Below, in pieces: positions 3,627 through 25,234 of a stretch of 64,000 nt of DNA. Where the stretch lies: sequence record OR836606.1; one strand, given 5' to 3'. Source of the stretch: Staphylococcus phage LY01. Position numbers and translations under genes: made by a program. Positions within the stretch are counted from its first letter, which is position 1. The number at the start of each line of letters is the position of its first letter. Under the pieces are notes generated by a model that was given only the letters and a program-made list of their open reading frames with translations, was not told the origin of the DNA and ran no database searches.

Positions 3627-5642
3627 TAACCAATTTCCCCCTCTAATTCTTTAATGATATCATCAGAAGCTTCAATAAGAGAAGGTAAACCATGAAACTC
3701 TTGAGCAAAAGCAACACTGTCTTGACTATTAAATTTACTTACGAATTCAGTATTAAAATCATAATTATCTTTATCTTGCTCATATTTAGGTACCGTTATT
3801 CTATCTTTATCAAGAATATTCATCTTACCTACATGTCCTTCAGGTGTTATATTAAATGCTCTAATAATAGATGGATATAGAGAACTTAAGTCAAAGTCAC
3901 AAACATTACTAAATAATCTATTAGATCTAATATCTTTACCTTTAACCAATACGTCTCCATTACGTTCGATTAACATCATATCAGCTACAAATCCGCCACG
4001 AATTTTATCAGCATTAGGATCCGATAATAATTTTGAATGATTATTGCTTAATACATATCCTTGATTTTCAAAGAATACTGAACTACGATTTCTTAAACAA
4101 ATAGTTTTCTTAAGTGCTTTACTAGGTCTTGTTCTAGTCATGTCTACAATAGAGAATAATAGATCAAACATATTAGTGTTATGTTCAATCAATGCAGCTA
4201 ATACAGTATCCTTAATATTATAAAGAATAAATGTATAGTAATCTCTAAAATGTAAATCAGAGATAGAACCTTCATATACATCTTTAGTAACTCCTGCTTC
4301 TTTTTCTCCAATATCATTTAACTTAACTGATTCCAAAGCACCATTGGGCTTATTAATATTTGCATATAACGCTAATTGGTCAATCCAATTAGTATAAGAA
4401 TTAGTCTCAAATGTAGAAGATCTATTAGCCATATCAGTAGCATTTTTATCTAATTTATAATATGCTTTTTTATCTTCAAATTCTTTAGAACAGAAATAAT
4501 CTGCAGGATTTTCTCCATTAGCTCTAATACGTTCAAATATTGCAGGAAAGTCATAATCTAGCTTTTATATTTATTAAATATAAAATAGACTATATCATAC
4601 TCATTAATATGAGTGAATATATTTAGTCGTTGAACAACTCTTATTAAGTTGATGCTGATCATTCTAAAAAGAACGTTCCAGCAATTAATATTCTTTTAAT
4701 GGAACCTATTATCAATTCCATGCAGTACATATGTCAGGCTTACTAATTTCATTAATATAATATAAGAAAGATTTAATTACTTGCATTTCTGTATCTAATT
4801 CATATATCTCAAATTCTAAACCTAAATTTTTACCAATTTCACTATTTTCATTATTATAAATTTCATTTAAGTTTTTAATTAATTTATCTTGATCTTCCAT
4901 AGTTTCTTTATAAGTGTCAGTGTCATATTTAAGAGCAAATGTTAATACTTTTTTCTTACTCCAATCCACTACAGTTATAATATTTATCTCTGCCTCAGCT
5001 TTAAGCGGGTCCGGGACAATTTGTATTAAAAGTAATACAAATTAGACTATATCTTCTTAGTAATATATTTAGTCGTTGAACATTAAATTTTTAATGATGC
5101 TGATTATCTTAATAAAGAATTTCCAGCAATTAATATTATTTTATCTGAGCTACCTTTAACCCAGTTACTTGAGATCCATCAACCTCAATATCGAATAGAC
5201 ATATATCTATACCAACTTTACTGTCTAAATTCTTTTTAATATACTCATTGATATTATAATCTTCTATATTTATATCAGAACCATGAGCATTATTTAATAA
5301 ATGGAAATCTTTTAGTTTTCTATATTCTTGCCAATTACCTGACTTCATAATTCTATCGTATTCTGCTTTATCTTGAGAATTACCAGCTTCTTTAACTACT
5401 GATTTGATAATATCTTTATGCTTACAAATAACAGTTCTTACTTTATCTTTTTCAATAGAACCTACAATTTTATTAGGAGGTAACCAATGTTCATCTTTAG
5501 TTACATAATAATGCATCATAGGATCTGTTATTTCCATATGTTTTTTAGTACCATCCTCTTCTTTAACTACCATTACTACTTTTTCTTTACCAGAAGCAGT
5601 TTCTTTTTTATTTAAATATGTTGATTTAATGAATCTTCCCAT
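3626..5642 (-). CDS. family B DNA polymerase, N-terminal half (3'-5' exonuclease plus palm motif A); three exons approx 5159..5642, 4715..5016, 3626..4561 interrupted by two miniature group I introns
   Basis: Exo I LFDIEV; then F-PDPLKAEAEINIITVVD matching T4 gp43 FPDPMKAEYDIDAITHYD; Exo II region AWN|LDYDFPAIFERI collinear with T4 GWNVESFDIPYVYNRI; motif A DFDLSSLYPSII. Frames are interrupted exactly at the two intron elements. Confidence 0.8.
4562..4714 (-). ncRNA. miniature group I intron (~153 nt) in polB-N, between Exo II codons ...AWN and LDYDF...
   Basis: mRNA sense: 5' exon AUGGAAU pairs with IGS GGUUCCAU (terminal U-G), P UAUUAAUUGCUGG, Q AAUCAGCAUC, P6 hairpin, R UGUUCAACGACUAAAUAU, P8 hairpin, S GAUAUAGUCU, then A-rich tail ending AUAUAAAAG| (omega-G). 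Stop codons at both intron ends; flanking exons in same phase. Confidence 0.75.
5017..5158 (-). ncRNA. miniature group I intron (~142 nt) in polB-N, between Exo I (FDIEV...TG) and F-PDP
   Basis: P1: exon CUGGGU pairs IGS GCUCAG with terminal U-G; same P/Q/R/S core as the other copies; phase-1 junction regenerates UUC (Phe) before PDP as in T4 (KF-PDP); proposed 3' end ...CAAAUUG|. Confidence 0.65.
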
Positions 5643-5724
5643 TTATCAATTCCACTCCTTAATTCAAATGTTACTTTGATAATTTAAACGTTATCTAGAA
5701 TTTGTAAAAAATTAAAATATAAAT

Positions 5725-5754
5725 TGCCAAACATTCTAATTTAAGAATGTTTGG
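5725..5754 (-). terminator. rho-independent terminator hairpin (gccaaacattct aattt aagaatgtttggc) followed by U-run on minus strand
   Basis: Perfect 12 bp inverted repeat plus T-rich tract in the minus-strand direction. Confidence 0.5.
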
Positions 5755-5761
5755 CTTATTA

Positions 5762-5917
5762 AATTAAATAAACAATGGTTCTTCCATAAAAGAATCCTCA
5801 GCAGTATCAACTTCATCTTGTTTATAAATTGTCTTATTTAAAAATAATTTAGTGGCTATTGTTGAAGATATAAATAATATAATTGATATAAAAATGATTA
5901 ATAATTTCTTTTTATTC
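5762..5917 (-). CDS. small predicted membrane protein (~51 aa, MNKKKLLIIFISIILFISSTIATKLF...)
   Basis: Short ORF with N-terminal hydrophobic helix, below the ORF-track length cutoff; terminator immediately downstream. Confidence 0.3.
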
Positions 5918-5958
5918 ATAGAATTTCATCTCTCCTCTAGATATAAAATAAAGTCTTT

Positions 5959-6156
5959 TTAGAAAAATGTATTTTTAACATTTAGCATTTCAATTCGTTT
6001 ATTAACGATATTAATATCCTTTTGAATTTCTTCTAATTTATCTTTATCAGGGCCATTAGTATGATGTGCTCCATTATTTAATATAATTTGGTAGTGTAAT
6101 TTATTAAATCTTTGAACTAATTTCATTTCATCTAATTTGTTTGTTTTATTTAACAT
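5959..6156 (-). CDS. hypothetical small protein (65 aa)
   Basis: ORF track; tightly spaced upstream of SbcC-like gene cluster. Confidence 0.35.
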   Translation of the reverse strand: MLNKTNKLDEMKLVQRFNKLHYQIILNNGAHHTNGPDKDKLEEIQKDINIVNKRIEMLNVKNTFF

Positions 6157-15390: not shown

Positions 15391-15406
15391 TAAGTTATTC
15401 TCCTTT

Positions 15407-16015
15407 TTATTTAAAGTTTTCTTTAGTTAGATATTTTTTAATTTCTTTTTCGTCTTCTAACTCTCTAAAATATGCATGAGGTTCAAATATATCAATACCA
15501 TTTATAAAGATTTTAATATTTCCATTATTTTCTTCTTTAAGCATTTCATCTAGCAAATTAGATAATTTATCTAAATCATTTTCATGTTCATCATAACCTA
15601 TAATATTTTCTTTATGAAAATTTTTCATCATGATTATACTGACACCGAGTGAATTCTTATCAACTTCTAAAAGTTCTTTATCCGCATGTCTACTAATAAA
15701 AGCCCTTAATTGCAAAGTTACTTTATTATCTTTAATTTTTGCATATGAGAATTCTAAGAATTCTACTGGAAGATTCTTTCTAACTTCATTATACATATTG
15801 CTGAAATATATATTTTCACTATCAATTAATTCAAAGAGTAAACTTAGATTATAATAAAGGTCATCATTTAAACTATAGTAATCTAAATTTCTTTCTATTA
15901 ATTTTTTATAATAGAGTTTATTTATCTTATCTTTAATATCACTTTCATCTTTACTAATTATAAAAAGCTCATTAATATCTTTATTATAATAGAATTTATT
16001 TTCTTTTAAAATCAT
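15407..16015 (-). CDS. paralog-family protein G (202 aa), tail FRELEDEKEIKKYLTKENFK
   Basis: Same family. Confidence 0.6.
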   Translation of the reverse strand: MILKENKFYYNKDINELFIISKDESDIKDKINKLYYKKLIERNLDYYSLNDDLYYNLSLLFELIDSENIYFSNMYNEVRKNLPVEFLEFSYAKIKDNKVTLQLRAFISRHADKELLEVDKNSLGVSIIMMKNFHKENIIGYDEHENDLDKLSNLLDEMLKEENNGNIKIFINGIDIFEPHAYFRELEDEKEIKKYLTKENFK

Positions 16016-16165
16016 ATCTTTTCCACTCCCTTAATTAGATTAATATAGAGATAATGAATTAATATAATTCATTATCTCATTTTTATAATATATATTTACA
16101 TACATTTTTCATCTAAATAAAAGAGATAACGGACAATTATAGTCCGTTATCTCATCTTTTTAAAT

Positions 16166-18712
16166 TTATTCTTTAGTTAAAGAGTATAAAGCTTGTACCA
16201 TATTATTTATGATAATTAGACTATATCTTCTTAGTAATATATTTAGTCGTTGAACAACTTATATTAAGTTGATGCTGATTAATCTAATAAGATACTTCCA
16301 GCAATTAATATTATTTATTGAGAGCATACAAGCATGTTACTCTCATTACCCAAATTACGTACTGAATTACCAGTGTAGTTTAGGTAGTTAGTTTTCTTAT
16401 TAAGAAGTTTATTAGCTTCTTTATTAGCCTCTACAGTCCAGAGAGATCTGATAGAAATCATATCCATTTACGTTATCTATATTAAGATAATATAGATCAG
16501 ACTATATCTTTACTTTAATAAGCATATTATATTTAGTCGTTGAACACTATTTGTAGTGATGCTGATTAAGATAATAATCTTTCCCAGCAATTAATAATAT
16601 TTAAATACGGCAATATAAATTACCGTCAAACGTTTATGTTATCTATAATAAATGATATCATAGACCAGACTATATCATCATCTCAATTGAGATATATTAT
16701 ATTTAGTCGTTGAACAACTTATATGAAGCTGATGCTGATTGCTCTAATAAGAGTTTTCAGCAATTAATAATATTTTCATTCTTAAATCACTTTAAGAAGC
16801 GACTTTTTCAAATCGGCACCTAACGCTATTTAATTTATAATTAAATTTGGACTATATCATAAACCTAAATATTAGGTTCCCTCACACTTCGGGAATTCAT
16901 TTCCCTACTCTACTCACTTCGTTATAGTATTTCAACTATACTTATTCTCTATATAAGAGTTACATTTATTGTTTTCGATAGTCTCTGAACGTTTATCCAT
17001 CATGTGGATACTTCGCTGCTAGACTTTCCCATTATTAAATACCCTTAGCATTTTCAGCATAGGTCATCAAAGAGATTTTTTCTGTCTTTCGACTGCATGT
17101 CACGCTATCCATTACTGGCATACGTTGTAGCTCTCTAAGCATTAGGGTTTACAAGCAATTCATAAGGTATTTTTTATCCTATATTACTATAAGACTGGAG
17201 CGTAAGTTACTCCGGCATAACTGTTGTGTATAATAGCGGTATCTATAAATACATCTTCATCAACAGGATATTCATGAACAACTTTAGGATAATCTTTAAG
17301 TACAATATCGTCTAAAGTAATTTCAGGAATTGTATCAACTGTAGTCAATATTTTAATTTTGGCAGGTGCAACATTCAAGAAATTTTCGCAAACTATATTA
17401 AATTAATACAGATCAGACTATATCATTACCTACTTTTAGGTATATTATATTTAGTCGTTGAACAAGTTTAATTGACTTGATGCTAATTAACCTATTAAAG
17501 TCTTTTAGCAATTAATAATATTTTCATTCTTAAATCACTTTAAGAAGCGACCAGTGTATTAATCGGATATCTTGAATAAACCACATGCTTATCTTCACAT
17601 ATTTCTGTAGCAGCTATATAAAGTAAATCAATTACAGTAAAAGTTCTACCTAAAGTATTTTCAAATAATTTAACTTTATGACGTTTACCTTGTCTATCAT
17701 TTACATATATAGGACTAAATCTTTCATTAGGATCCTTAATAAAGAATTCTAACATATTCTTAATAGCTTTATCATCAAACTGTTCATATACTTCTTCTAA
17801 TGATAATTCATTTTCATCAGTTCCAGTAGCGGTTTGGAAGGCATCTTTGTGGATTTCAATAAAATCGATAATGTATTTGCTAAAGAAAGGTAAGAATAAA
17901 GTAACTAATTGAGTTAATGGTACCCCTAACTGACCAAATTCAATTTGCATTTCATCCCATTTATTTGAATTAATCTTAGGTGAAGAAATAACTGAGCGAG
18001 TACTGTTATCTACCGTCTTACCTAAAATATTTCTTTGCATCATACCAGTTTTACCTGATAGTTCTCCTGAAGTTAATTTAACGTATATTTCAAATAATTT
18101 ATTTTGAATATTATATTTAGTCGTATTAGCTACAAAGTCAAATGAATTAAAACTAATTGAATCTACAGATCTTAAGATGCTTGCATACATATCATTTATT
18201 TCTTCAGTATCTTGAATTTCCCCTGAAGTTTCATTAGGATTAAAGTCACGATAGAAAGCAGGTATTACGAGCCATTTATCTGTGAATATTCTATCTTTAG
18301 GAGTATTTTTAAGCATATCAATTTTTTCATTTCGGATACGAGAATCATTTTTTCTAAATTTAAGATTTTCATAATTATCGTATAAGAAATTTAATCCAGT
18401 TTCACCATTTTCATCTGGAACTAATTGTCCTTTCTCAATTTTAAAGTAATCAGAACCTTGAATACATAGATCTATATTCTTATCTAATTCTCTCATAGCT
18501 TTATAAGCTACAGGATTCAAGTATTTGCCACCTAAATTAATCCAACCTATATTATTCTTTCTTTCATCAGTACCTATTAAACCAAATATTTCATATGAAA
18601 ATAAACCATCTTCTTTAGGTAAAGTTCCTGAATCAAAGAAAATAGGATTAGTAACTTCTTTAGCTCCATAAGCTGTAATAACTTGATCAACATTAACCAT
18701 ATCTATTTTCAT
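16166..18712 (-). CDS. multisubunit RNA polymerase beta-prime-like subunit, N-terminal fragment; six exons approx 17561..18712, 17192..17388, 16812..16825, 16622..16630, 16349..16464, 16166..16198 separated by five group I introns
   Basis: RNILGKTVDNSTRSVISSPK matches RpoC NLLGKRVDYSGRSVIVVGP; SRYPI ~ NRAPTLH; spliced model reads ...SLGAD|FDG|DMISIRSLWTVEANKEANKLLNKKTNYL, collinear with E. coli [34 protein letters not shown]; gene ends ...NLGNESVQALYSLTKE* near the YYMTRD-equivalent point. Confidence 0.7.
16199..16348 (-). ncRNA. miniature group I intron (~150 nt) in RNAP beta-prime-like gene
   Basis: P1: exon GAGAGU pairs IGS GCUCUC with terminal U-G; P/Q/R/S core; 3' end ...AUAAUAUG| leaves in-frame terminal exon VQALYSLTKE*. 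Confidence 0.65.
16465..16621 (-). ncRNA. miniature group I intron (~157 nt) between FDG micro-exon and DMISIRS exon
   Basis: P1: exon GACGGU pairs IGS GCCGU with terminal U-G; core P/Q/R/S; 3' end ...CGUAAAUG| is the only junction that restores the third Asp of DFDGD in frame. Confidence 0.7.
16631..16811 (-). ncRNA. miniature group I intron (~181 nt) between ...LGAD and FDG
   Basis: Exon CCGAU| pairs IGS GUCG (U-G). 33 nt 5' segment GUCGCUUCUUAAAGUGAUUUAAGAAUGAAAAUAU is identical to the intron at ~17390-17560. 3' end ...AUAAACG| is the only phase-0 G downstream of an in-frame UAA. Confidence 0.65.
16826..17191 (-). ncRNA. group I intron, ORF-less (~366 nt), larger relative of the miniature family and of the IStron intron core
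   Basis: P AUGAAUUGCUUGUAAAC, Q AUCUAGCAGCG, R UUCAGAGACUAUCGAAAAC, S AUGAUAUAGUCC; compared with 24270-24600 the 5' P1-P2-P3 segment, R/P7 and the S/3' segment are largely conserved, P5 and the central domain diverge; putative P1 GUCU|-GGAU; proposed 3' end UUAAAUAG|. Confidence 0.65.
17389..17560 (-). ncRNA. miniature group I intron (~170 nt, boundaries +/- 10 nt) between SRYPI... and ...ENFLNVAPAK
   Basis: Same core; shares the 33-nt 5' segment and the CCGAU| - GUCG P1 arrangement with the intron at 16631-16811. Two phase-consistent junction pairs are possible, so the ends are approximate. Confidence 0.55.
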
Positions 18713-18798
18713 TTAATACTTCACTTCCAATCTAATTTTATAAAAAAATAAATATATAAAAGCCATGTTAAGCTATAAACTTAACATGGCAATAATTA

Positions 18799-19551
18799 TT
18801 AATTAACTAAGCTGTTACTCATATAACTAAAATAATTTAAATCTATTTCTTTTTCTTTAGCTTTCATAATAGTTGCTTCATCTAATTTTTGATTATATCC
18901 TAATGAAGGAATATCAATACCGGTCTGCATAACATTATCACAGTTCATTATAATATCTTTAATATTACTAACCTCGTCTTCATATATTCTAGTAACATAC
19001 CCTAATGTGTTAATTACATCTGATTTCTTTTCATCTGATTCAAGATAATAAATATCAACCTTTTCCATACTTCCCCTAAATAAAGTTTTTAAAAATCTTT
19101 CTTTAGATTTTAAGTTATTGTCAGAAGTCTTAGTTACAATTGACAATTTATTCATTAAAGGAGTATTAATTGTATATGACAAACTTTTAGCTAGATTTGT
19201 TGGCTGTAATGTATCGTATAAATCTTTTTTAAATACAATTTCTTCGTGAAGTTTATTTCTAGCTTCATTAACTTCATCTTCAGAAAATCTTTCATAAACA
19301 TCTTTTCTCACTAACCATTGGTCAATATAATATTCAGGACGATTGAGAACTGTATTGTAATGAGTGCTATAATTATAATCTGGAGATAGTCTGAAAAATT
19401 GATTGTAATAATCAAAATCTTCATGCATTAATTGAACAATTTTAGGTGAAATATTCACTAAAACTTCATCGCAATCAACAACTATATGACCTGTATTCAT
19501 TTCGTTCTCTTTATACATATAATTAAAATTCTCCTTTGTCATAATCTTCAA
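18799..19551 (-). CDS. HAD-superfamily 5'(3')-deoxyribonucleotidase-like protein; true start probably internal (MNTGHIVVDCDEV, ATG ~19500)
   Basis: HAD motif I VVDCDEV (DxDxV) about 10 residues from the likely N-terminus, as in NT5C-type nucleotidases. The ORF-track start at 19551 overlaps the upstream gene by 29 nt. Confidence 0.45.
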   Translation of the reverse strand: MKIMTKENFNYMYKENEMNTGHIVVDCDEVLVNISPKIVQLMHEDFDYYNQFFRLSPDYNYSTHYNTVLNRPEYYIDQWLVRKDVYERFSEDEVNEARNKLHEEIVFKKDLYDTLQPTNLAKSLSYTINTPLMNKLSIVTKTSDNNLKSKERFLKTLFRGSMEKVDIYYLESDEKKSDVINTLGYVTRIYEDEVSNIKDIIMNCDNVMQTGIDIPSLGYNQKLDEATIMKAKEKEIDLNYFSYMSNSLVN

Positions 19552-20863
19552 TGAATCTATTTTTTAATTCTTTTATTTTATCTTCATGAAATTTAGTTTG
19601 TCTAATTTTAAAAGGTTTAGTGCTGTCAAGAAAATCTGTTGAATGAATATTTTCTTCATCAACTAAAGTCATATATTTAGGATTAGTTGTATTTAGTGCA
19701 TCATATAAATCAAATTTATTCTTTTTCATAAGATTGTATTTATCTTGAGTCATTAAAACTGAATAATAAATATCCTTTAATTTAACTGATCTTCTGTAAT
19801 TAGAAGGATCTTGTAAACCAGGTGTTTCTTTAGTATTAGTTATAATTCCTTTACCATGATACTCCTTACCAATATAATAAACTAAATAAATGAACCCCAT
19901 ATTATCTTTAACGCTAAATAATCTATATCCATCTTTATTTTCATCAAATACCTCATAAATATTCCAATCATTAATTACTCTACGCTTAGCATAATAGGGT
20001 CTATTTTCTGGTTTTAAATGATATGGTTGTCCTCCAATACTAAGTCGTTTCTCATATTCTTCTTTTTCAAGTTGTTTAATATAAGTTTTACTAAATTTAT
20101 CCAAAACAATTGAATGTTCTTCATCAAAACTTTCATAATTATAATTAAAAGGTAATACAATCCTAAAAGTTTTACTTGTACATCTATATAAAACTTTACT
20201 TAGATTTTTTTCATTTAATTTAATTTGGATTTCATTAGTTTCTTCATTATAATTAATATCTTCATCATTTATAGAATATAGACTTTTAGTAATTACATTA
20301 AATGTAATTGGATTAACGTCTTCAATCATATTAATAATGATTAAATTTCTTTCATAATCTATATATGCTAACATGTTATACATATCTAAGTTAAGTGAAT
20401 CAGGGTCATACTTATCCTTTGTTTTATGAGGATCTCTAGCCCATACCTCTAATTCTCCCGCATTTTTAATTTTTAATTTAGAATTATCTTTTAATGTGAT
20501 ATCTTTAAGAAAATCTTTACCAATATGATTTCTACCAATCTCATTTAATAATATTGCTAGTTGATGTTCAAATAACTTAGGTATATCTTTCTCTAAAGTA
20601 AAGAAATAACAATCATTATTAAAATTATTTTTATTGCTTTTACGATATTCCTTTAATAAATCAACTAACTCTTTATCTTCATTAAATCGAATAATATTAT
20701 CAATAATAAATCTATTTTGATCAAATCTATAGAACCATGTCCCATTATCATCCATTTTTCTTAACTTAGCCGGTATTTTTCTACCATTTTTTCTGTATAA
20801 ATTCAAATTTTTACTAAATACATCTGACTGTTTTGCCATAGCATTAATACACTCCATTTTCAT
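19523..20863 (-). CDS. hypothetical protein (446 aa)
   Basis: ORF track; no motif recognised. Confidence 0.45.
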   Translation of the reverse strand: MKMECINAMAKQSDVFSKNLNLYRKNGRKIPAKLRKMDDNGTWFYRFDQNRFIIDNIIRFNEDKELVDLLKEYRKSNKNNFNNDCYFFTLEKDIPKLFEHQLAILLNEIGRNHIGKDFLKDITLKDNSKLKIKNAGELEVWARDPHKTKDKYDPDSLNLDMYNMLAYIDYERNLIIINMIEDVNPITFNVITKSLYSINDEDINYNEETNEIQIKLNEKNLSKVLYRCTSKTFRIVLPFNYNYESFDEEHSIVLDKFSKTYIKQLEKEEYEKRLSIGGQPYHLKPENRPYYAKRRVINDWNIYEVFDENKDGYRLFSVKDNMGFIYLVYYIGKEYHGKGIITNTKETPGLQDPSNYRRSVKLKDIYYSVLMTQDKYNLMKKNKFDLYDALNTTNPKYMTLVDEENIHSTDFLDSTKPFKIRQTKFHEDKIKELKNRFIEDYDKGEF

Positions 20864-21050: not shown

Positions 21051-24000
21051 TTAGAATTTAATCATATTAGATACAAATGAACTATTTGAAGATTCCAATA
21101 CTCTAACACCAATAGATTCAATAATATCTTTACCTGGTTTAATATGATCTTCAATCATACTATCATAGTCAATAAAAGGTCTAAACTCTTCAGGAATTGT
21201 ATTACCTTCAACTGCAATTACATTTAAACCGTTTTTAACTAAACTTTCATTCTTAAATACTTCTCTAAATCTATCTAAAGTATCTTCATCAGTTATCTTA
21301 TTTTTAATATCTCCAAATGTACTAATATTCAATTTAACTGCTAATATCTTAGCAGGTAATGCTATTTCTTTTTCTGGGAACATTATATTCCATGCTAAAG
21401 CAGCTCTATATGCCATTTGAGAATAAGGGTCTTTATATACCTCAGCATTATTAGCTTTAAACGGTTTTAAGAATTCGATTTCTCCATTATCTAATGATTT
21501 CTTAATCATTTCTTCTATATCTTTAAATTTACGTATTATCTTAATACGATCTACACCGGTTTTATTTTCTAAAATATCTTTTTGTAATATTTCAGTAAAT
21601 AGTTCTCTAATACGTTTATTAGTATTAACTTTTCTAATAGCCATACCTTTAACATCTAAATCTGGAGGTTGAATTAAATTACCCTCTTGTTGAATTACTG
21701 ATGATGCATAAGTTTTCTTTTTATCAGTTGTTAATTGTTTATCAAGTAAAACATTTTTATTAGCTTTATTAAATTAATAAAGATTAGACTATATCTTATA
21801 CTTATATTAAGTACATTTATATTTAGTCGTTGAACTTAATTTCTTAAGCTGCTGATTTAATTAATGAACTATTCCAGCAATTAATAAATTTATCTTTCTG
21901 TATATCGCTATACAACGGAGCATTAACTTGATAATACTCATTTTTCATTGATATTAAACCTAAATGTTCTTCCTCTAATCCTACATCTTTACAGAATCTA
22001 TAGTAAGACAATTCTAATAATTTAGTTATTTGATAGTTAATAATAGATATATTACTTACACGTTGTTCTAATTTATCCTCTAAACCATTCTCTGCAATTG
22101 GAAAATCTTCAGGTTTTAAAGATTTAAATTTTTCGTATAACGGATCTAAGTGAACAAAGTTCATTTATGTTAGCTGTATCAAATATAATACAGATCAGAC
22201 TATATCTTCTTTAGAAATATATTTAGTCGTTGAACTTAATTTCTTAAGCTGCTGATTTGATTAATAAATCATTCCAGCAATTAATATTTTTTATTGACAG
22301 CAATTTTTTATCACAACTGTCAGTATCTATAGTTAATACGCTTCTACGTTTCTTGTAATTCATTCTATACATTCTATTATAATCTTGATAATTATATATA
22401 ACCCAATCTTTTAATATTTCAAATAATTCATCTAATAATGGAATCATATCTTCAGGAGGATCATTTGGATCTAAGAAATCTTCTCTGCCAGTCATTTTAC
22501 TAATTTTATTATCAAATATATCGGTATGATCAATTAACCCAAATAAATTATTTTTGAAATATACTTTATTTTTATCTTCTTGACTTAATTTACTAAATAC
22601 TTCTTCTAACTTAAGAAAATCTTCTTCACTATAATCTTCTTCAACATTAGAAACTAAACCTTCTAAAATTTCTTTATCAGTTGGAATTGATTTTATCTTA
22701 ATATCATGATCTTCATATTTTTCACTAATTATTCTTAATATATAATGATATATTTCATCAATCTTCATGAAAAAGATTTTACCGCCAATAAATCTTTCTA
22801 AAGCTATCGCTGAAGTAGTTACAATATCAACTGCTATATAAATTCGTGAATTTAATTTAATTAATTCGAATTTATTCGACTTCGTCATTACTTTTACTTA
22901 CTTTGCACTTTAAGTTTTTCGTTATAAACTACTTCAACATAAAGTGTCAACCAAAGCAGAGGTTAAAGCTCTTAAGTCATCACATTTGGACATTCAAGAG
23001 AATTTAAATCTAGTTAGCCTGCCCAACAAAACGCTTACCGTACATTTTGAGGTTGACAGCAGCGTTATAATCTCTATCCATTTTATTTCCACAATCACAC
23101 TTATACCATCTATCTGATAACTTCATCTTATTTTCTTTAGTTAAGACTTGACCACAATTAGAACATAATTGAGTTGATGGGAACCATCTATCTGCTACAA
23201 TAATAGTATTACCATTGCTTTCAGCTTTTTGTTTTAATAAAGTTCTGAATTGTCTCCAATTCATTGCAGAAATAGATTTAGACAAATTTCTATTTTTAAT
23301 CATATTTGAAACTTTAAGATCTTCAATTGTAATATACTGATAATTTTTAATTAAGTTAGTAGTTATTTTATGAAGATAATCTTTTTTAATGTTATTAATT
23401 CTCATCCATATTTTTTGTATTTTGGTTTTCAATACATTGTATTTGTTAGAACCATAAACTTTACGAGATAATCTTTTTTGATAGTACTTAATCTTATTGT
23501 ATAGTGGAATCAATTTATCATTTAATGAATGATATTTCTTAAATTTACCGAAATCATCATTAATGATAGCTAAATCTTTTACACCTAAATCAATACCAAC
23601 ATGGCTATTGTTATGAATTAAGCTCTTATTATTATCAACTTTCATTACTATTGAAGCGAAATATTTTCCAGCATATTTAGATATAGTAACTTCTTGAATG
23701 GAATTATAATTAAACGGGATAGATTCTTTCATTTTAATTAATGAATTAATTCCTTGAAGTTTTAATTTATTATTTTTATCGCCTTTAATTTGTAATGAAT
23801 AATTATTCTTCTTATAGAACCTTGTACTTAATTTAGAATGTTTTTTAGATTTAAATCTCGGATACTTACCGTAACCTTTCCACATCATATTAAAAGCTTT
23901 ACCTAAATCTTCAGTTGCTGTGTCCATAACTTGAGATATTTGATCTTTTTCCCAATCTTCTTTACATTTTTTAAGTTCATCACGAACTTTCCTATGTGTT

Positions 24001-25234
24001 GGTTTTGGAAGAGATGTATCAAGTTGATGAGCATTCCACATTTGTTTCCATTTATTAAGCCCTTTATTATAAATATATCTAGAATATCCAAATGCTTGAT
24101 TAAATACTTCTTTTTGTTCTTTATTTGGTTTCAATTCGATTTTAATAGATTTGTACATGTGATTTCACCTCCTTCAAATATATAATATATACTTAAAGTT
24201 AGTGATGAATTTTAATTAAATTAAACTCACGAATTCCTGATTTAGTGTTTCCACATCAGTTAAATAGCAAGACTATATCATATTCTATCAGAATGATAGA
24301 ACCCTCGCACTTCAGGAATATTATTTCCCTACTCTACTCACTTCACATAGTATTTCAACTATGCTTATTCAGGCGTTAATCCTGTGCTTTCGATAGTCGT
24401 TGAACGTTCATCCATCATGTGGATGCTTCGCTGCTAGATTTTCCATTAGTCCACCCTTAGCACTTAATTTACATTAAGCTTTTATTTCAGCCTAGGTAAT
24501 CTTAGAGTATTTTTTCTGATTTTCATCTGCTTTCACGCTATCCATTACTGGTATACGTTGTAGCTCTCTAAGCTTTAGGAGTTTACAAGCAATTCACGAG
24601 GTTTGCTCACTTCTTTCATGAATTAAACTAACTTTAATTCACTATGAAGTAAGGGAGTTTTGATTAACTATTTTAAAATAATTTAAGTGAGCAATTCGTG
24701 TTAAATCACTTAAATTATATTAAACTAAAATAGTTTCTTTTCTCCACTATAAGTAGTTGCTGGACCTGAATTAGCATCATAGAATGTACTATTTTTCTGT
24801 ATCATAGCACCGTAATAACTGTTAGCTAAGATCTTAATTGTTTTTTGTTCATTCATATATTTATCATGTAAAACATCATCTTTACCTTTATAAATAAACA
24901 TATTGTGCTTAGCTACTTTACGAGAATCTATAAAGTCTTTTAACATTTCCGCATTTAAATTTTTTCTTTGTGATTGAGGCTGATAAATAGAACCAGAACC
25001 AGTTACAATTAAATTATTATTAATAATTTGTCTTAAGGTTGTATCTACATTCATTTTTTGTCCTGATATTTCTATTAAAGCTGGATCTAAATGTTTTTTA
25101 ATATATTCTCTACAGGCATTAATTAGTTTCTCATCATCAATATCAGGTTTTCTTATTTTAATTAATTTAATTAAATTTTCTAAATAACCCGTTATAGCCC
25201 TTTTACGTTCATATTTATTATCTTGATTAGACAT
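21051..25234 (-). CDS. family B DNA polymerase, C-terminal half (motif B, motif C, KKxY, thumb); exons approx 24745..25234, 22316..22885, 21915..22161, 21051..21763, interrupted by an IStron-like intron and two miniature group I introns
   Basis: Motif B KTIKILANSYYGAMIQKNSTFYDANSGPATT (T4: [29 protein letters not shown]); TTSAIALERFIGGK (T4: TTFGQMALQWIERK); motif C VLTIDTDS at the exon/intron junction; KKKTYA (KKRYA); C-terminus FIDYDSMIEDHIKPGKDII...MIKF (T4: WMDYTVLLEKTFIKPLEGF...FDF). Confidence 0.75.
21764..21914 (-). ncRNA. miniature group I intron (~151 nt) in polB-C, upstream of the KKxY motif
   Basis: Core P/Q/R/S present with the variant Q ...AAUCAGCAGCUU; 3' end ...UUUAAUAAAG|CU regenerates UCU (Ser) with a phase-1 5' junction after ...NAP; the upstream ORF 21844..22164 reads through the intron P element as INCWN...LIKSAA*. 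Confidence 0.55.
22162..22315 (-). ncRNA. miniature group I intron (~154 nt) inserted immediately after polB motif C (IDTDS|)
   Basis: P1: exon GACAGU pairs IGS GCUGUC with terminal U-G, placing the 5' splice site directly after the AGU codon of DTDS; core P/Q/R/S; 3' end ...ACAUAAAUG| (G of the apparent ATG of ORF 21844..22164); downstream exon NFVHLD parallels T4 IYVSAD. Confidence 0.7.
22889..23120 (-). ncRNA. putative TnpB guide RNA scaffold (omega RNA / right-end RNA) overlapping tnpB 3' end and extending to the 3' splice site
   Basis: Locally GC-richer structured segment (GGCAGGCUAACUAGAUUUAAAUUCUC...GGUUGACACUUUAUGUUGAAG) between tnpB stop and polB exon; inferred by analogy with IS605 elements. 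Confidence 0.35.
23010..24158 (-). CDS. tnpB: TnpB (IS605 OrfB-family RNA-guided RuvC nuclease), 382 aa, embedded in the IStron-like intron
   Basis: RuvC-I HVGIDLGVKDLA, RuvC-II YITIEDLKVSNM, zinc finger CSNCG...CDCG, RuvC-III RDYNAAVNL; no tnpA nearby. Confidence 0.85.
   Translation of the reverse strand: MYKSIKIELKPNKEQKEVFNQAFGYSRYIYNKGLNKWKQMWNAHQLDTSLPKPTHRKVRDELKKCKEDWEKDQISQVMDTATEDLGKAFNMMWKGYGKYPRFKSKKHSKLSTRFYKKNNYSLQIKGDKNNKLKLQGINSLIKMKESIPFNYNSIQEVTISKYAGKYFASIVMKVDNNKSLIHNNSHVGIDLGVKDLAIINDDFGKFKKYHSLNDKLIPLYNKIKYYQKRLSRKVYGSNKYNVLKTKIQKIWMRINNIKKDYLHKITTNLIKNYQYITIEDLKVSNMIKNRNLSKSISAMNWRQFRTLLKQKAESNGNTIIVADRWFPSTQLCSNCGQVLTKENKMKLSDRWYKCDCGNKMDRDYNAAVNLKMYGKRFVGQAN

Follow-up and report, generated by a model that had tools for sequence, protein, structure and literature searches.

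Gene and exon structure

The 64,000-nucleotide (nt) stretch of Staphylococcus phage LY01 analysed here (sequence record OR836606.1; hereafter the window) is very AT-rich, with a G+C content of approximately 25%. On its minus strand, from 18712 to 16166, it carries an RNA polymerase gene that is interrupted by five group I introns (A to E), which distribute the catalytic loop of the enzyme over three exons, two of them only 14 and 9 nt long. The orthologues in MarsHill, Machias and AR9 are annotated as the N-terminal part of the virion RNA polymerase beta-prime subunit, and by homology the gene is assigned to the same part of this subunit; the enzyme is the virion multisubunit RNA polymerase, and the phage an AR9-like jumbo phage of Staphylococcus in the S6/MarsHill group. 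The virion polymerase of AR9-like phages is required for early transcription. Phages of this kind encode two multisubunit RNA polymerases (bioRxiv 10.1101/2020.12.14.422802). Positions 15400-19600 match Staphylococcus jumbo phages only, namely MarsHill, Madawaska, S6, PALS_2, DC4 and SA1 and, more distantly, Machias, PB50 and AH12. The identity to jumbo phages is 83-94%, and none of the matches is full-length.

The list of open reading frames (ORFs) contains, on the minus strand, an ORF of 390 amino acids (aa) at 18712..17540, followed by short ORF fragments. The S6 and SA1 orthologues are uninterrupted, comprise 1512 nt and read ...RYPIENFLNVAP...HNSYAGALGADFDGDMISIRSLW...NLGNESVQALYSLTKE followed by the stop codon. 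When the window is aligned to S6, five insertions remain, all within the last 361 coding bases; these are introns A to E (Table 1). The six exons joined amount to 1512 nt and 503 aa, exactly the length of the S6 and SA1 orthologues. The spliced product is identical to that of S6 at 493 of the 503 residues (98%), and from residue 377 to the end, a part which spans all five junctions, at 127 of 127 (...YAGALGADFDGDMISIR...). On these alignments the six-exon match to S6 cannot be chance.

The catalytic loop of the spliced product reads GADFDGD. The first Asp is encoded by GAU at 16814..16812 in exon 3, the second by GAC at 16627..16625 in exon 4, and the third by GAU at 16464..16462 in exon 5. 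In a PDB search the product aligned with Escherichia coli beta-prime (residues 412-514; E 2e-4) and with the AR9 non-virion beta-prime structures 7S00/7S01 (E 1e-11). The Pfam family RNA_pol_Rpb1_2 was matched at product residues 437-473 with 25.0 bits, slightly below the cut-off of 25.3. A homologue search with the C-terminal 119 aa returned two proteins only. The fully spliced mRNA is predicted to be 1035 nt shorter than the DNA and to read ...GGAGCGUUAGGUGCCGAUUUUGACGGUGAUAUG... across the junctions; the corresponding predicted junction-spanning protein stretch is ...HNSYAGALGADFDGDMISIR, and the predicted peptide is VVHEYPVDEDVFIDTAIIHNSYAGALGADFDGDMISIR.

An initial annotation of this DNA had proposed that the ADFDGD loop lies on three exons with one aspartate in each, and the exon model and the identity to S6 agree with this. 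The sequences it had named, CGUUAGGUGCCGAU (16825..16812), UUUGACGGU (16630..16622) and GAUAUGAUU... (from 16464), are found on the minus strand at the positions it gave, and its alignment of the spliced product with E. coli beta-prime is borne out by the match at E. coli residues 412-514, besides which there is the Pfam match at product residues 437-473. The first micro-exon, which it had put at 12-14 nt, comprises 14 nt, since two leading bases complete a split codon; the shorter reading does not hold. That codon had been taken for Ser and is Ala (G^CG; ^ denotes a splice junction). The upstream exon had been drawn to end near 17192 with an extension '...APVS'; it ends 17 nt earlier, at 17210 (...GCC GGA G^), and has no such extension. 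Among the proposed junctions, the micro-exon boundaries are thus matched by the S6 alignment and the end of exon 2 is not.

Table 1. Exons and introns of the beta-prime subunit gene in the window, with proposed pairings at the splice sites.
Feature	Position	Strand	Description	P1; pair at 5' splice site; P10
Exon 1	17562..18712	-	ATG at 18712; ends ...AGA UAU CCG AU^; in ORF list	
Intron A	17389..17561	-	173 nt mini group I intron with P2; model R1 130.5 bits	CGAU/GUCG; U17562·G17551; 2 bp only
Exon 2	17210..17388	-	179 nt; C GAA AAU UUC ... GCC GGA G^	
Intron B	16826..17209	-	384 nt, without ORF; group I core; terminal G 16826	GGAG/CUCC; G17210-C17200; CGUUAG/CUUACG, 5/6 positions
Exon 3	16812..16825	-	14-nt micro-exon CGUUAGGUGCCGAU; (A)LGAD; first catalytic Asp	
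Intron C	16631..16811	-	181 nt mini group I intron with P2, paralogue of intron A; R1 145.8 bits	CGAU/GUCG with UU/AA extension and GAAA loop; U16812·G16803; UUU/AAA
Exon 4	16622..16630	-	9-nt micro-exon UUUGACGGU; FDG; second catalytic Asp	
Intron D	16465..16621	-	157 nt mini group I intron; R1 127.9 bits	ACGGU/GCCGU with AAU/AUU extension; U16622·G16611; GAUAUGA/UUUAUAUU, 7 bp
Exon 5	16339..16464	-	126 nt, DMISIRSLW...NLGNES; third catalytic Asp; starts GAUAUGAUU... at 16464	
Intron E	16199..16338	-	140 nt mini group I intron without P8 hairpin; R1 113.6 bits; also in MarsHill	GAGAGU/GCUCUC; U16339·G16325; GUACAAGC/GCUUGUAU, 8 bp
Exon 6	16166..16198	-	33 nt, VQALYSLTKE and stop	

Exon 1, up to 17561, has 94% nucleotide identity to S6, and its junction RYPI^ENF is the same as in S6; exon 2 has 95.5% nucleotide identity over 17387..17210. 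Intron A is absent from S6 and SA1 in the alignment. Exon 3 differs from the S6 sequence CACUUGGUGCAGAU by synonymous changes only, and the homologue on Logan contig L008 reads GCU UUA GGG GCC GAU. In MarsHill no intron separates the 9 nt of exon 4 from the exon before them, and intron D comes next. Closely 3' of the stop codon lie two similar 42-nt inverted repeats (16047-16088 and 16122-16163; AGAGATAA...TTATCTC), which are probably terminators.

Group I identity of the introns

An Rfam scan of 15900-17800 gave five full-length matches to RF00028 on the minus strand, with 39.9, 27.2, 54.6, 43.4 and 30.9 bits for introns A to E (E-values 3e-8, 2e-4, 1e-12, 3e-9 and 2e-5). The gathering score of 50 was passed by intron C alone among the five. 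Over the whole 64 kb, Rfam returned no match at all in either gathering or E-value mode, an effect of the speed filter and not of absence. Routine Rfam screening of such AT-rich genomes can therefore miss every intron, here all ten in the window.

Introns A, C, D and E have near-identical blocks of 20-58 nt in common, with copies 62-91% identical, and are classified by this similarity as one family of ORF-less mini-introns (140-181 nt) that has multiplied in this phage lineage. R1, a covariance model built from 13 members of the family, finds eight copies in the window and more in MarsHill, Machias and AH12, and none in the S6, SA1 or Madawaska loci. In a 17-member alignment 93.8% of the cells in P3, P4, P5, P6, P8 and P9 are paired, against 28-52% when the partners are slid, and compensatory changes occur in 27 of 35 pairs, counts which come from an alignment fitted to the model and so favour the structure. 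P7 (GACUA/UAGUC) is invariant in the family. The unconstrained minimum free energy fold of exon 3 through intron D has a z-score of -4.4 and recovers P1, P2, P4-P6, P8 and P9 of intron C as well as P1, P4-P6, P8 and P9 of intron D.

Splice sites and micro-exons

All P1 and P10 pairings were verified for each base from its coordinate. The U·G wobble at the 5' splice site is present in introns A, C, D and E, the junctions of which are fixed independently by the S6 orthologue. A terminal G precedes the 3' exon in all five introns (G17389, G16826, G16631, G16465 and G16199). The pairing partners within each micro-exon do not overlap. In exon 3 (CGUUAG-GUGC-CGAU) the bases CGUUAG pair with intron B as P10 and CGAU pairs with intron C as P1, and in exon 4 (UUU-G-ACGGU) the first three bases pair with intron C as P10 and the last five with intron D as P1. 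The P1/P10-type pairing that the initial annotation had suggested for the short exons is thus found in both of them. Its statement that U-G pairs in P1 constrain the junctions applies to introns C and D, whose 5' splice sites are fixed in this way, and fails for intron B, where a G-C pair occupies the site, as in IS607-type IStrons.

Two candidate pairings were rejected. The P1 that Rfam gives for intron E (ACCUAAA/UUUGGGU) is out, since the S6 exon continues to ...GAG AGU. A 5' splice site of intron A after ACACU, which would yield RYPINTLCENF, conflicts with RYPIENF in S6, and a U·G is available only after CCGAU.

Relatives of the mini-introns

Introns A and C are 82% identical over 142 nt. 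Both follow CCGAU and have the same guide, GUCG, and the GCC codon of the window (GCA in S6) gives an extra G-C pair. Because the guide and the CCGAU context are common to both, the sequences suggest that intron C arose from the spread of intron A to a second matching ...CCGAU^ site. Intron D has a 94%-identical copy at the same site in MarsHill.

Ten group I introns are present in the window. Two further mini-introns lie on the minus strand in the DNA polymerase gene that also contains intron J (described below): intron H (22162-22315, 154 nt) directly after the DTDS motif (TIDTDS^NFVH), and intron I (21752-21935, 184 nt, with P2) at MKNE(F)LLDK. Both have the canonical U·G and a terminal G, and their junctions were confirmed against S6. 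Introns F (5017-5158, 142 nt) and G (4562-4714, 153 nt), also on the minus strand, lie in a gene with family-B exonuclease motifs at FDIEV...TG^FPDP and TAWN^LDYDFP; these junctions were placed from the reading frame and P1 only.

The P8 hairpin is missing in introns E, F and H (140-154 nt) and in intron D of Machias (L004:3068-3201) and AH12 (L006:3246-3378). These members sit in essential genes of isolated, viable phages; the AH12 copy of intron E has P8. In Machias and AH12 intron D follows GAUGGC^ (L004:3040-3070, L006:3215-3245), where the C faces an A (ACCAUC); this may be a C·A wobble, which would covary with the U·G of the window. An extra mini-intron in AH12 (L006:3025-3080) follows UUGGC^, and there the C pairs with a G (GUCAA). 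The viral contig IMGVR_UViG_3300001528_000285 (L067, 368-3110) carries, within 3 kb, four small group I introns of 180-192 nt that are related and are separated by exons of a few hundred nt, so that Staphylococcus phages are not alone in having such clusters.

Intron B and the IStron lineage

Intron B is not a member of the mini-intron family. The exon sequences of S6, MarsHill and L008 place it between GCC GGA G and CG UUA GG, with the 5' splice site after G17210. It lacks the canonical U·G at the splice site: the junction reads GGAG^U, and U17209·G17201 lies one position inside the intron. With this site the spliced junction is predicted to read GGAGCGUUAGGUGCCGAU.

The core sequences of introns B and J, both in this window, agree at 265 of 307 positions (86%). 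Intron J (24741..22831, minus strand) is a 1911-nt IStron in the gene for the DNA polymerase catalytic subunit; its 5' end holds the group I core, and it encodes a TnpB of 382 aa at 23010-24158 (domains OrfB_IS605, 3e-21; Cas12f1-like_TNB, 2e-19; HTH_OrfB_IS605). It is inserted as AGUGGAG^...GCAG^UUGAU, and without it the gene reads TYSG^VDIV, like S6. The presence of an IStron with TnpB in a replication gene of a virulent jumbo phage seems to merit separate attention. An uncultivated phage (L019, IMGVR_UViG_3300032038_007191) has an IStron-type intron in the catalytic loop (HHSYLKALGG^DYDGDTVSIRG) of its own beta-prime gene, which lies at approximately 4940-6100 in the orientation of the intron. 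That intron lies 9 nt downstream of the site of intron B, and it too follows GGAG with no U·G available. Contig L039 and related contigs carry the same kind of intron after UGAG in the beta-subunit gene, where the AR9 and S6 homologues fix ...NPSLE^LERMG... A relative in Listeria phage LPJP1 lies in non-coding DNA beside an IS607 transposase and is uninformative for P1. The rule of a G at the last exon position, G(-1), combined with a terminal G is seen to hold by alignment at introns J and L019, and probably holds at L039.

Nearly all group I introns obey the U·G rule, whereas the 5' exon of group B IStrons reportedly does not end in U (PMC4227781). The targets of group B IStrons are rich in G, and for a C. 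botulinum element scarless splicing has been demonstrated both in cells and in vitro (PMC10690162). The 5' exons of introns B (GCCGGAG^) and J (AGUGGAG^) likewise end in G within a G-rich target. Intron B has neither TnpA, TnpB nor a guide-RNA part and thus lacks the insertion-sequence component of an IStron, which comprises TnpB, with or without the serine recombinase TnpA, and a 3'-terminal guide RNA; intron J does carry TnpB. Because its core resembles that of J, because G(-1) is common to its relatives and because group B IStrons splice after G, intron B is assigned by comparison as an ORF-less derivative of the IS607-type (group B) IStron lineage, not as a complete IStron. Alternative boundaries for intron B (U(-1) with a terminal C; a 7-nt exon) were dropped once the link to IStrons explained G(-1).

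A competing reading would let intron B use a U·G pair after all, cleaving after U17209 and joining at 16819, the only in-frame acceptor after a G for this reading. Exon 3 would then be 7 nt (UGCCGAU) and the product, ...YAGVADFDGD..., two residues shorter. U17209·G17201 does stand directly above the GGAG/CUCC helix, like the U·G pair in introns D and E, and the reading would respect the rule that governs nearly all group I introns (PMC4227781). It would, however, cost the protein two residues beside the catalytic loop that all homologues contain without variation. The bases CGUUAGG differ from S6 by synonymous changes only and are coding in L008. The reading leaves the intron without P10, whereas CGUUAG pairs with CUUACG at five of six positions; the relatives J and L019 have no U·G of any kind and can splice only after G; and the 5' exons of group B IStrons do not end in U (PMC4227781). 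Use of the U·G is therefore considered very improbable.

Insertion sites in other phages

S6, SA1, PALS_2 and DC4 have no introns in or near the catalytic loop. MarsHill has an endonuclease intron 6 nt from site A in addition to introns D and E, and Madawaska and L008 have ORF-carrying introns at the D site (FDG^D). Machias carries introns A, D and E, as does AH12, in which a further mini-intron after ALG^ leaves a 15-nt exon, GCUGACUUUGAUGGC. AR9 has an endonuclease intron at DYD^GD. Across the different phages there are six distinct insertion sites within approximately 27 nt around the catalytic loop, and the elements that have settled in this loop of the jumbo-phage enzyme are of three kinds, namely introns with an endonuclease, mini-introns and a derivative of an IStron.

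In the MarsHill record (L002, 110055-113191) the coding sequence stops at a codon inside intron E. In the AH12 record (L006, 9905-14758) the gene is split into several 'hypothetical proteins' and the 15-nt exon is unannotated. Genes split by such introns are thus mis-annotated in public records. Exact and degenerate patterns across the micro-exons had no match in IMG/VR or JGI metagenomes, and the exact arrangement was absent from the phage records, IMG/VR and JGI metagenomes searched.

Proposed splicing and alternative explanations

Selfish group I introns have very probably accumulated around the codons of the catalytic loop and are expected to excise, restoring the 503-aa frame. Each intron would fold separately and be removed by the ordinary two-step, guanosine-initiated reaction, and excision would restore a frame identical to that of the intron-less orthologue across the junctions. 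The micro-exons would be manageable, as each holds the P10 partner of the upstream intron adjoining the P1 partner of the downstream intron. Because these partners do not overlap, no fixed order of splicing would be needed, and the introns are expected to splice independently, in any order. The arrangement shows no sign of a function for the phage, and the preferred reading is a hot spot for insertion into sequence that is both indispensable and highly conserved.

Several points weigh against this interpretation. Splicing of introns A to E is inferred from conservation only, and the covariation counts carry the bias of the fitted alignment mentioned above. P8, ordinarily a component of the catalytic core, is missing from intron E and some of its relatives, and introns A, C, D and E are shorter than well-studied self-splicing examples; the mini-introns may depend on a chaperone, either protein or RNA. 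The P10 helix of intron A has only 2 bp, and P1 of introns A and C only 4 exon base pairs each. The guide common to A and C makes exon skipping conceivable, in which the exon before A would be joined to the exon after C. The arrangement with the 9-nt exon rests on one sequence, none being found elsewhere in the collections searched.

Part of this evidence would also fit a decaying allele, in which one intron or more no longer splices efficiently, such as E or the pair C and D with just 9 nt between them, and little or no functional subunit is made. Splicing is predicted here from the nucleotide sequence, intron E has no P8, the P1 helices are very short with a guide common to A and C, and the exact arrangement is unique among the collections searched. 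Decay is nevertheless unlikely. The protein is perfectly conserved over every junction and the nucleotide differences are synonymous only, while splice-site nucleotides, guides and core helices are intact and covarying. Copies without P8 sit in essential genes at several sites in independently isolated, viable phages (intron E in MarsHill, intron D in Machias and AH12), and the virion polymerase of AR9-like phages is required for early transcription. Still less probable, and the least likely explanation considered, is an assembly artefact in which repeats have been collapsed or misjoined into tandem introns. The 82% identity of A and C and the near-identical blocks of 20-58 nt in four copies could mislead assemblers, but the copies are 62-91% identical and distinguishable, and the unique stretches between them are successive S6 coding pieces in order and in frame. 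Moreover, subsets of these introns recur at identical sites in MarsHill, Machias and AH12, which were assembled independently, and a 15-nt exon peculiar to AH12 is present as well.

If selfish accumulation with accurate excision is accepted, the arrangement touches the limits of the group I mechanism: the 14- and 9-nt exons barely hold one P10 and one P1 partner each, and five introns deep in 361 coding bases of an essential enzyme push the mechanism far within a compact viral gene. The Azoarcus intron, approximately 205 nt long, is the usually quoted example of a small natural group I intron. Searching the literature for the smallest known group I intron yielded no useful result. It may tentatively be proposed, although the combination is rather doubtful, that ORF-less introns of 140-184 nt, several of them without P8, are autonomous self-splicing ribozymes smaller than the Azoarcus intron, and that two of them act on a single 9-nt exon without protein, the exon being set by adjacent P10 and P1 partners. 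Within the same proposal, dense packing of the loop could possibly be selected, each insertion destroying the target of a rival endonuclease or TnpB from a co-infecting phage. The locus offers a natural system for studying interference between neighbouring ribozymes, the order of splicing and the minimum size of a working group I intron.

Comparison with known systems

The closest parallel is g145 of AR9, the orthologous gene in the same phage group, the annotation of which joins three pieces and leaves out two group I introns with endonuclease genes. One of these introns lies inside the motif (DYD^GD), so that the aspartates are already spread over two exons; another RNA polymerase gene of AR9, g189, is annotated as six pieces. 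AR9 differs in that its introns are large, contain homing endonuclease genes and leave no micro-exon here, whereas LY01 has five ORF-less introns and the motif on three exons. Gene orf142 of Staphylococcus phage Twort contains three self-splicing group I introns, reportedly described by Landthaler and Shub in 1999. It is similar in being a phage protein gene with clustered group I introns in which exon skipping is possible as a side reaction; the host gene is a different one, and exons of approximately 10 nt are not known from it.

Exons of this size are known from mitochondria. A 1-nt exon between group I introns occurs in placozoan cox1 (PMC5436844), and fungal mitochondrial genes have exons of a few bp between group I introns (as cited in PMC12308204). 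In those cases, as here, a second self-splicing intron is inserted beside an existing one within a conserved active-site codon, and the micro-exons are missed by annotation pipelines; they differ in belonging to eukaryotic organelles, with long introns and likely protein helpers, whereas LY01 presents a phage gene with mini-introns of 140-181 nt. Given these cases of 1 to a few nt, the DYD^GD intron of AR9 and the 15-nt exon of AH12, the word 'extraordinary' that the initial annotation used of the 9-nt exon was too strong.

Intron B resembles the group B IStrons (Tourasse et al. 2014, PMC4227781; Zedaveinyte et al. 2023, PMC10690162) in its G-ending 5' exon and G-rich target, and ORF-less copies have also been reported for BcISt1 (PMC4227781). 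Its target, GGAG, differs from the TGGG of those elements, the hosts of which are a Firmicute chromosome, a plasmid or a clostridial prophage and not a virulent jumbo phage gene. Introns in the RNA polymerase genes of these phages were already known, mapped by protein alignment only (bioRxiv 10.1101/2020.12.14.422802). The literature searched contained no description of such micro-exons in a phage or bacterial gene, nor of this mini-intron family. Micro-exons between group I introns and the AR9 intron within the motif were therefore known already, and what appears to be new in LY01 is a phage gene with exons of 14 and 9 nt between mini-introns.

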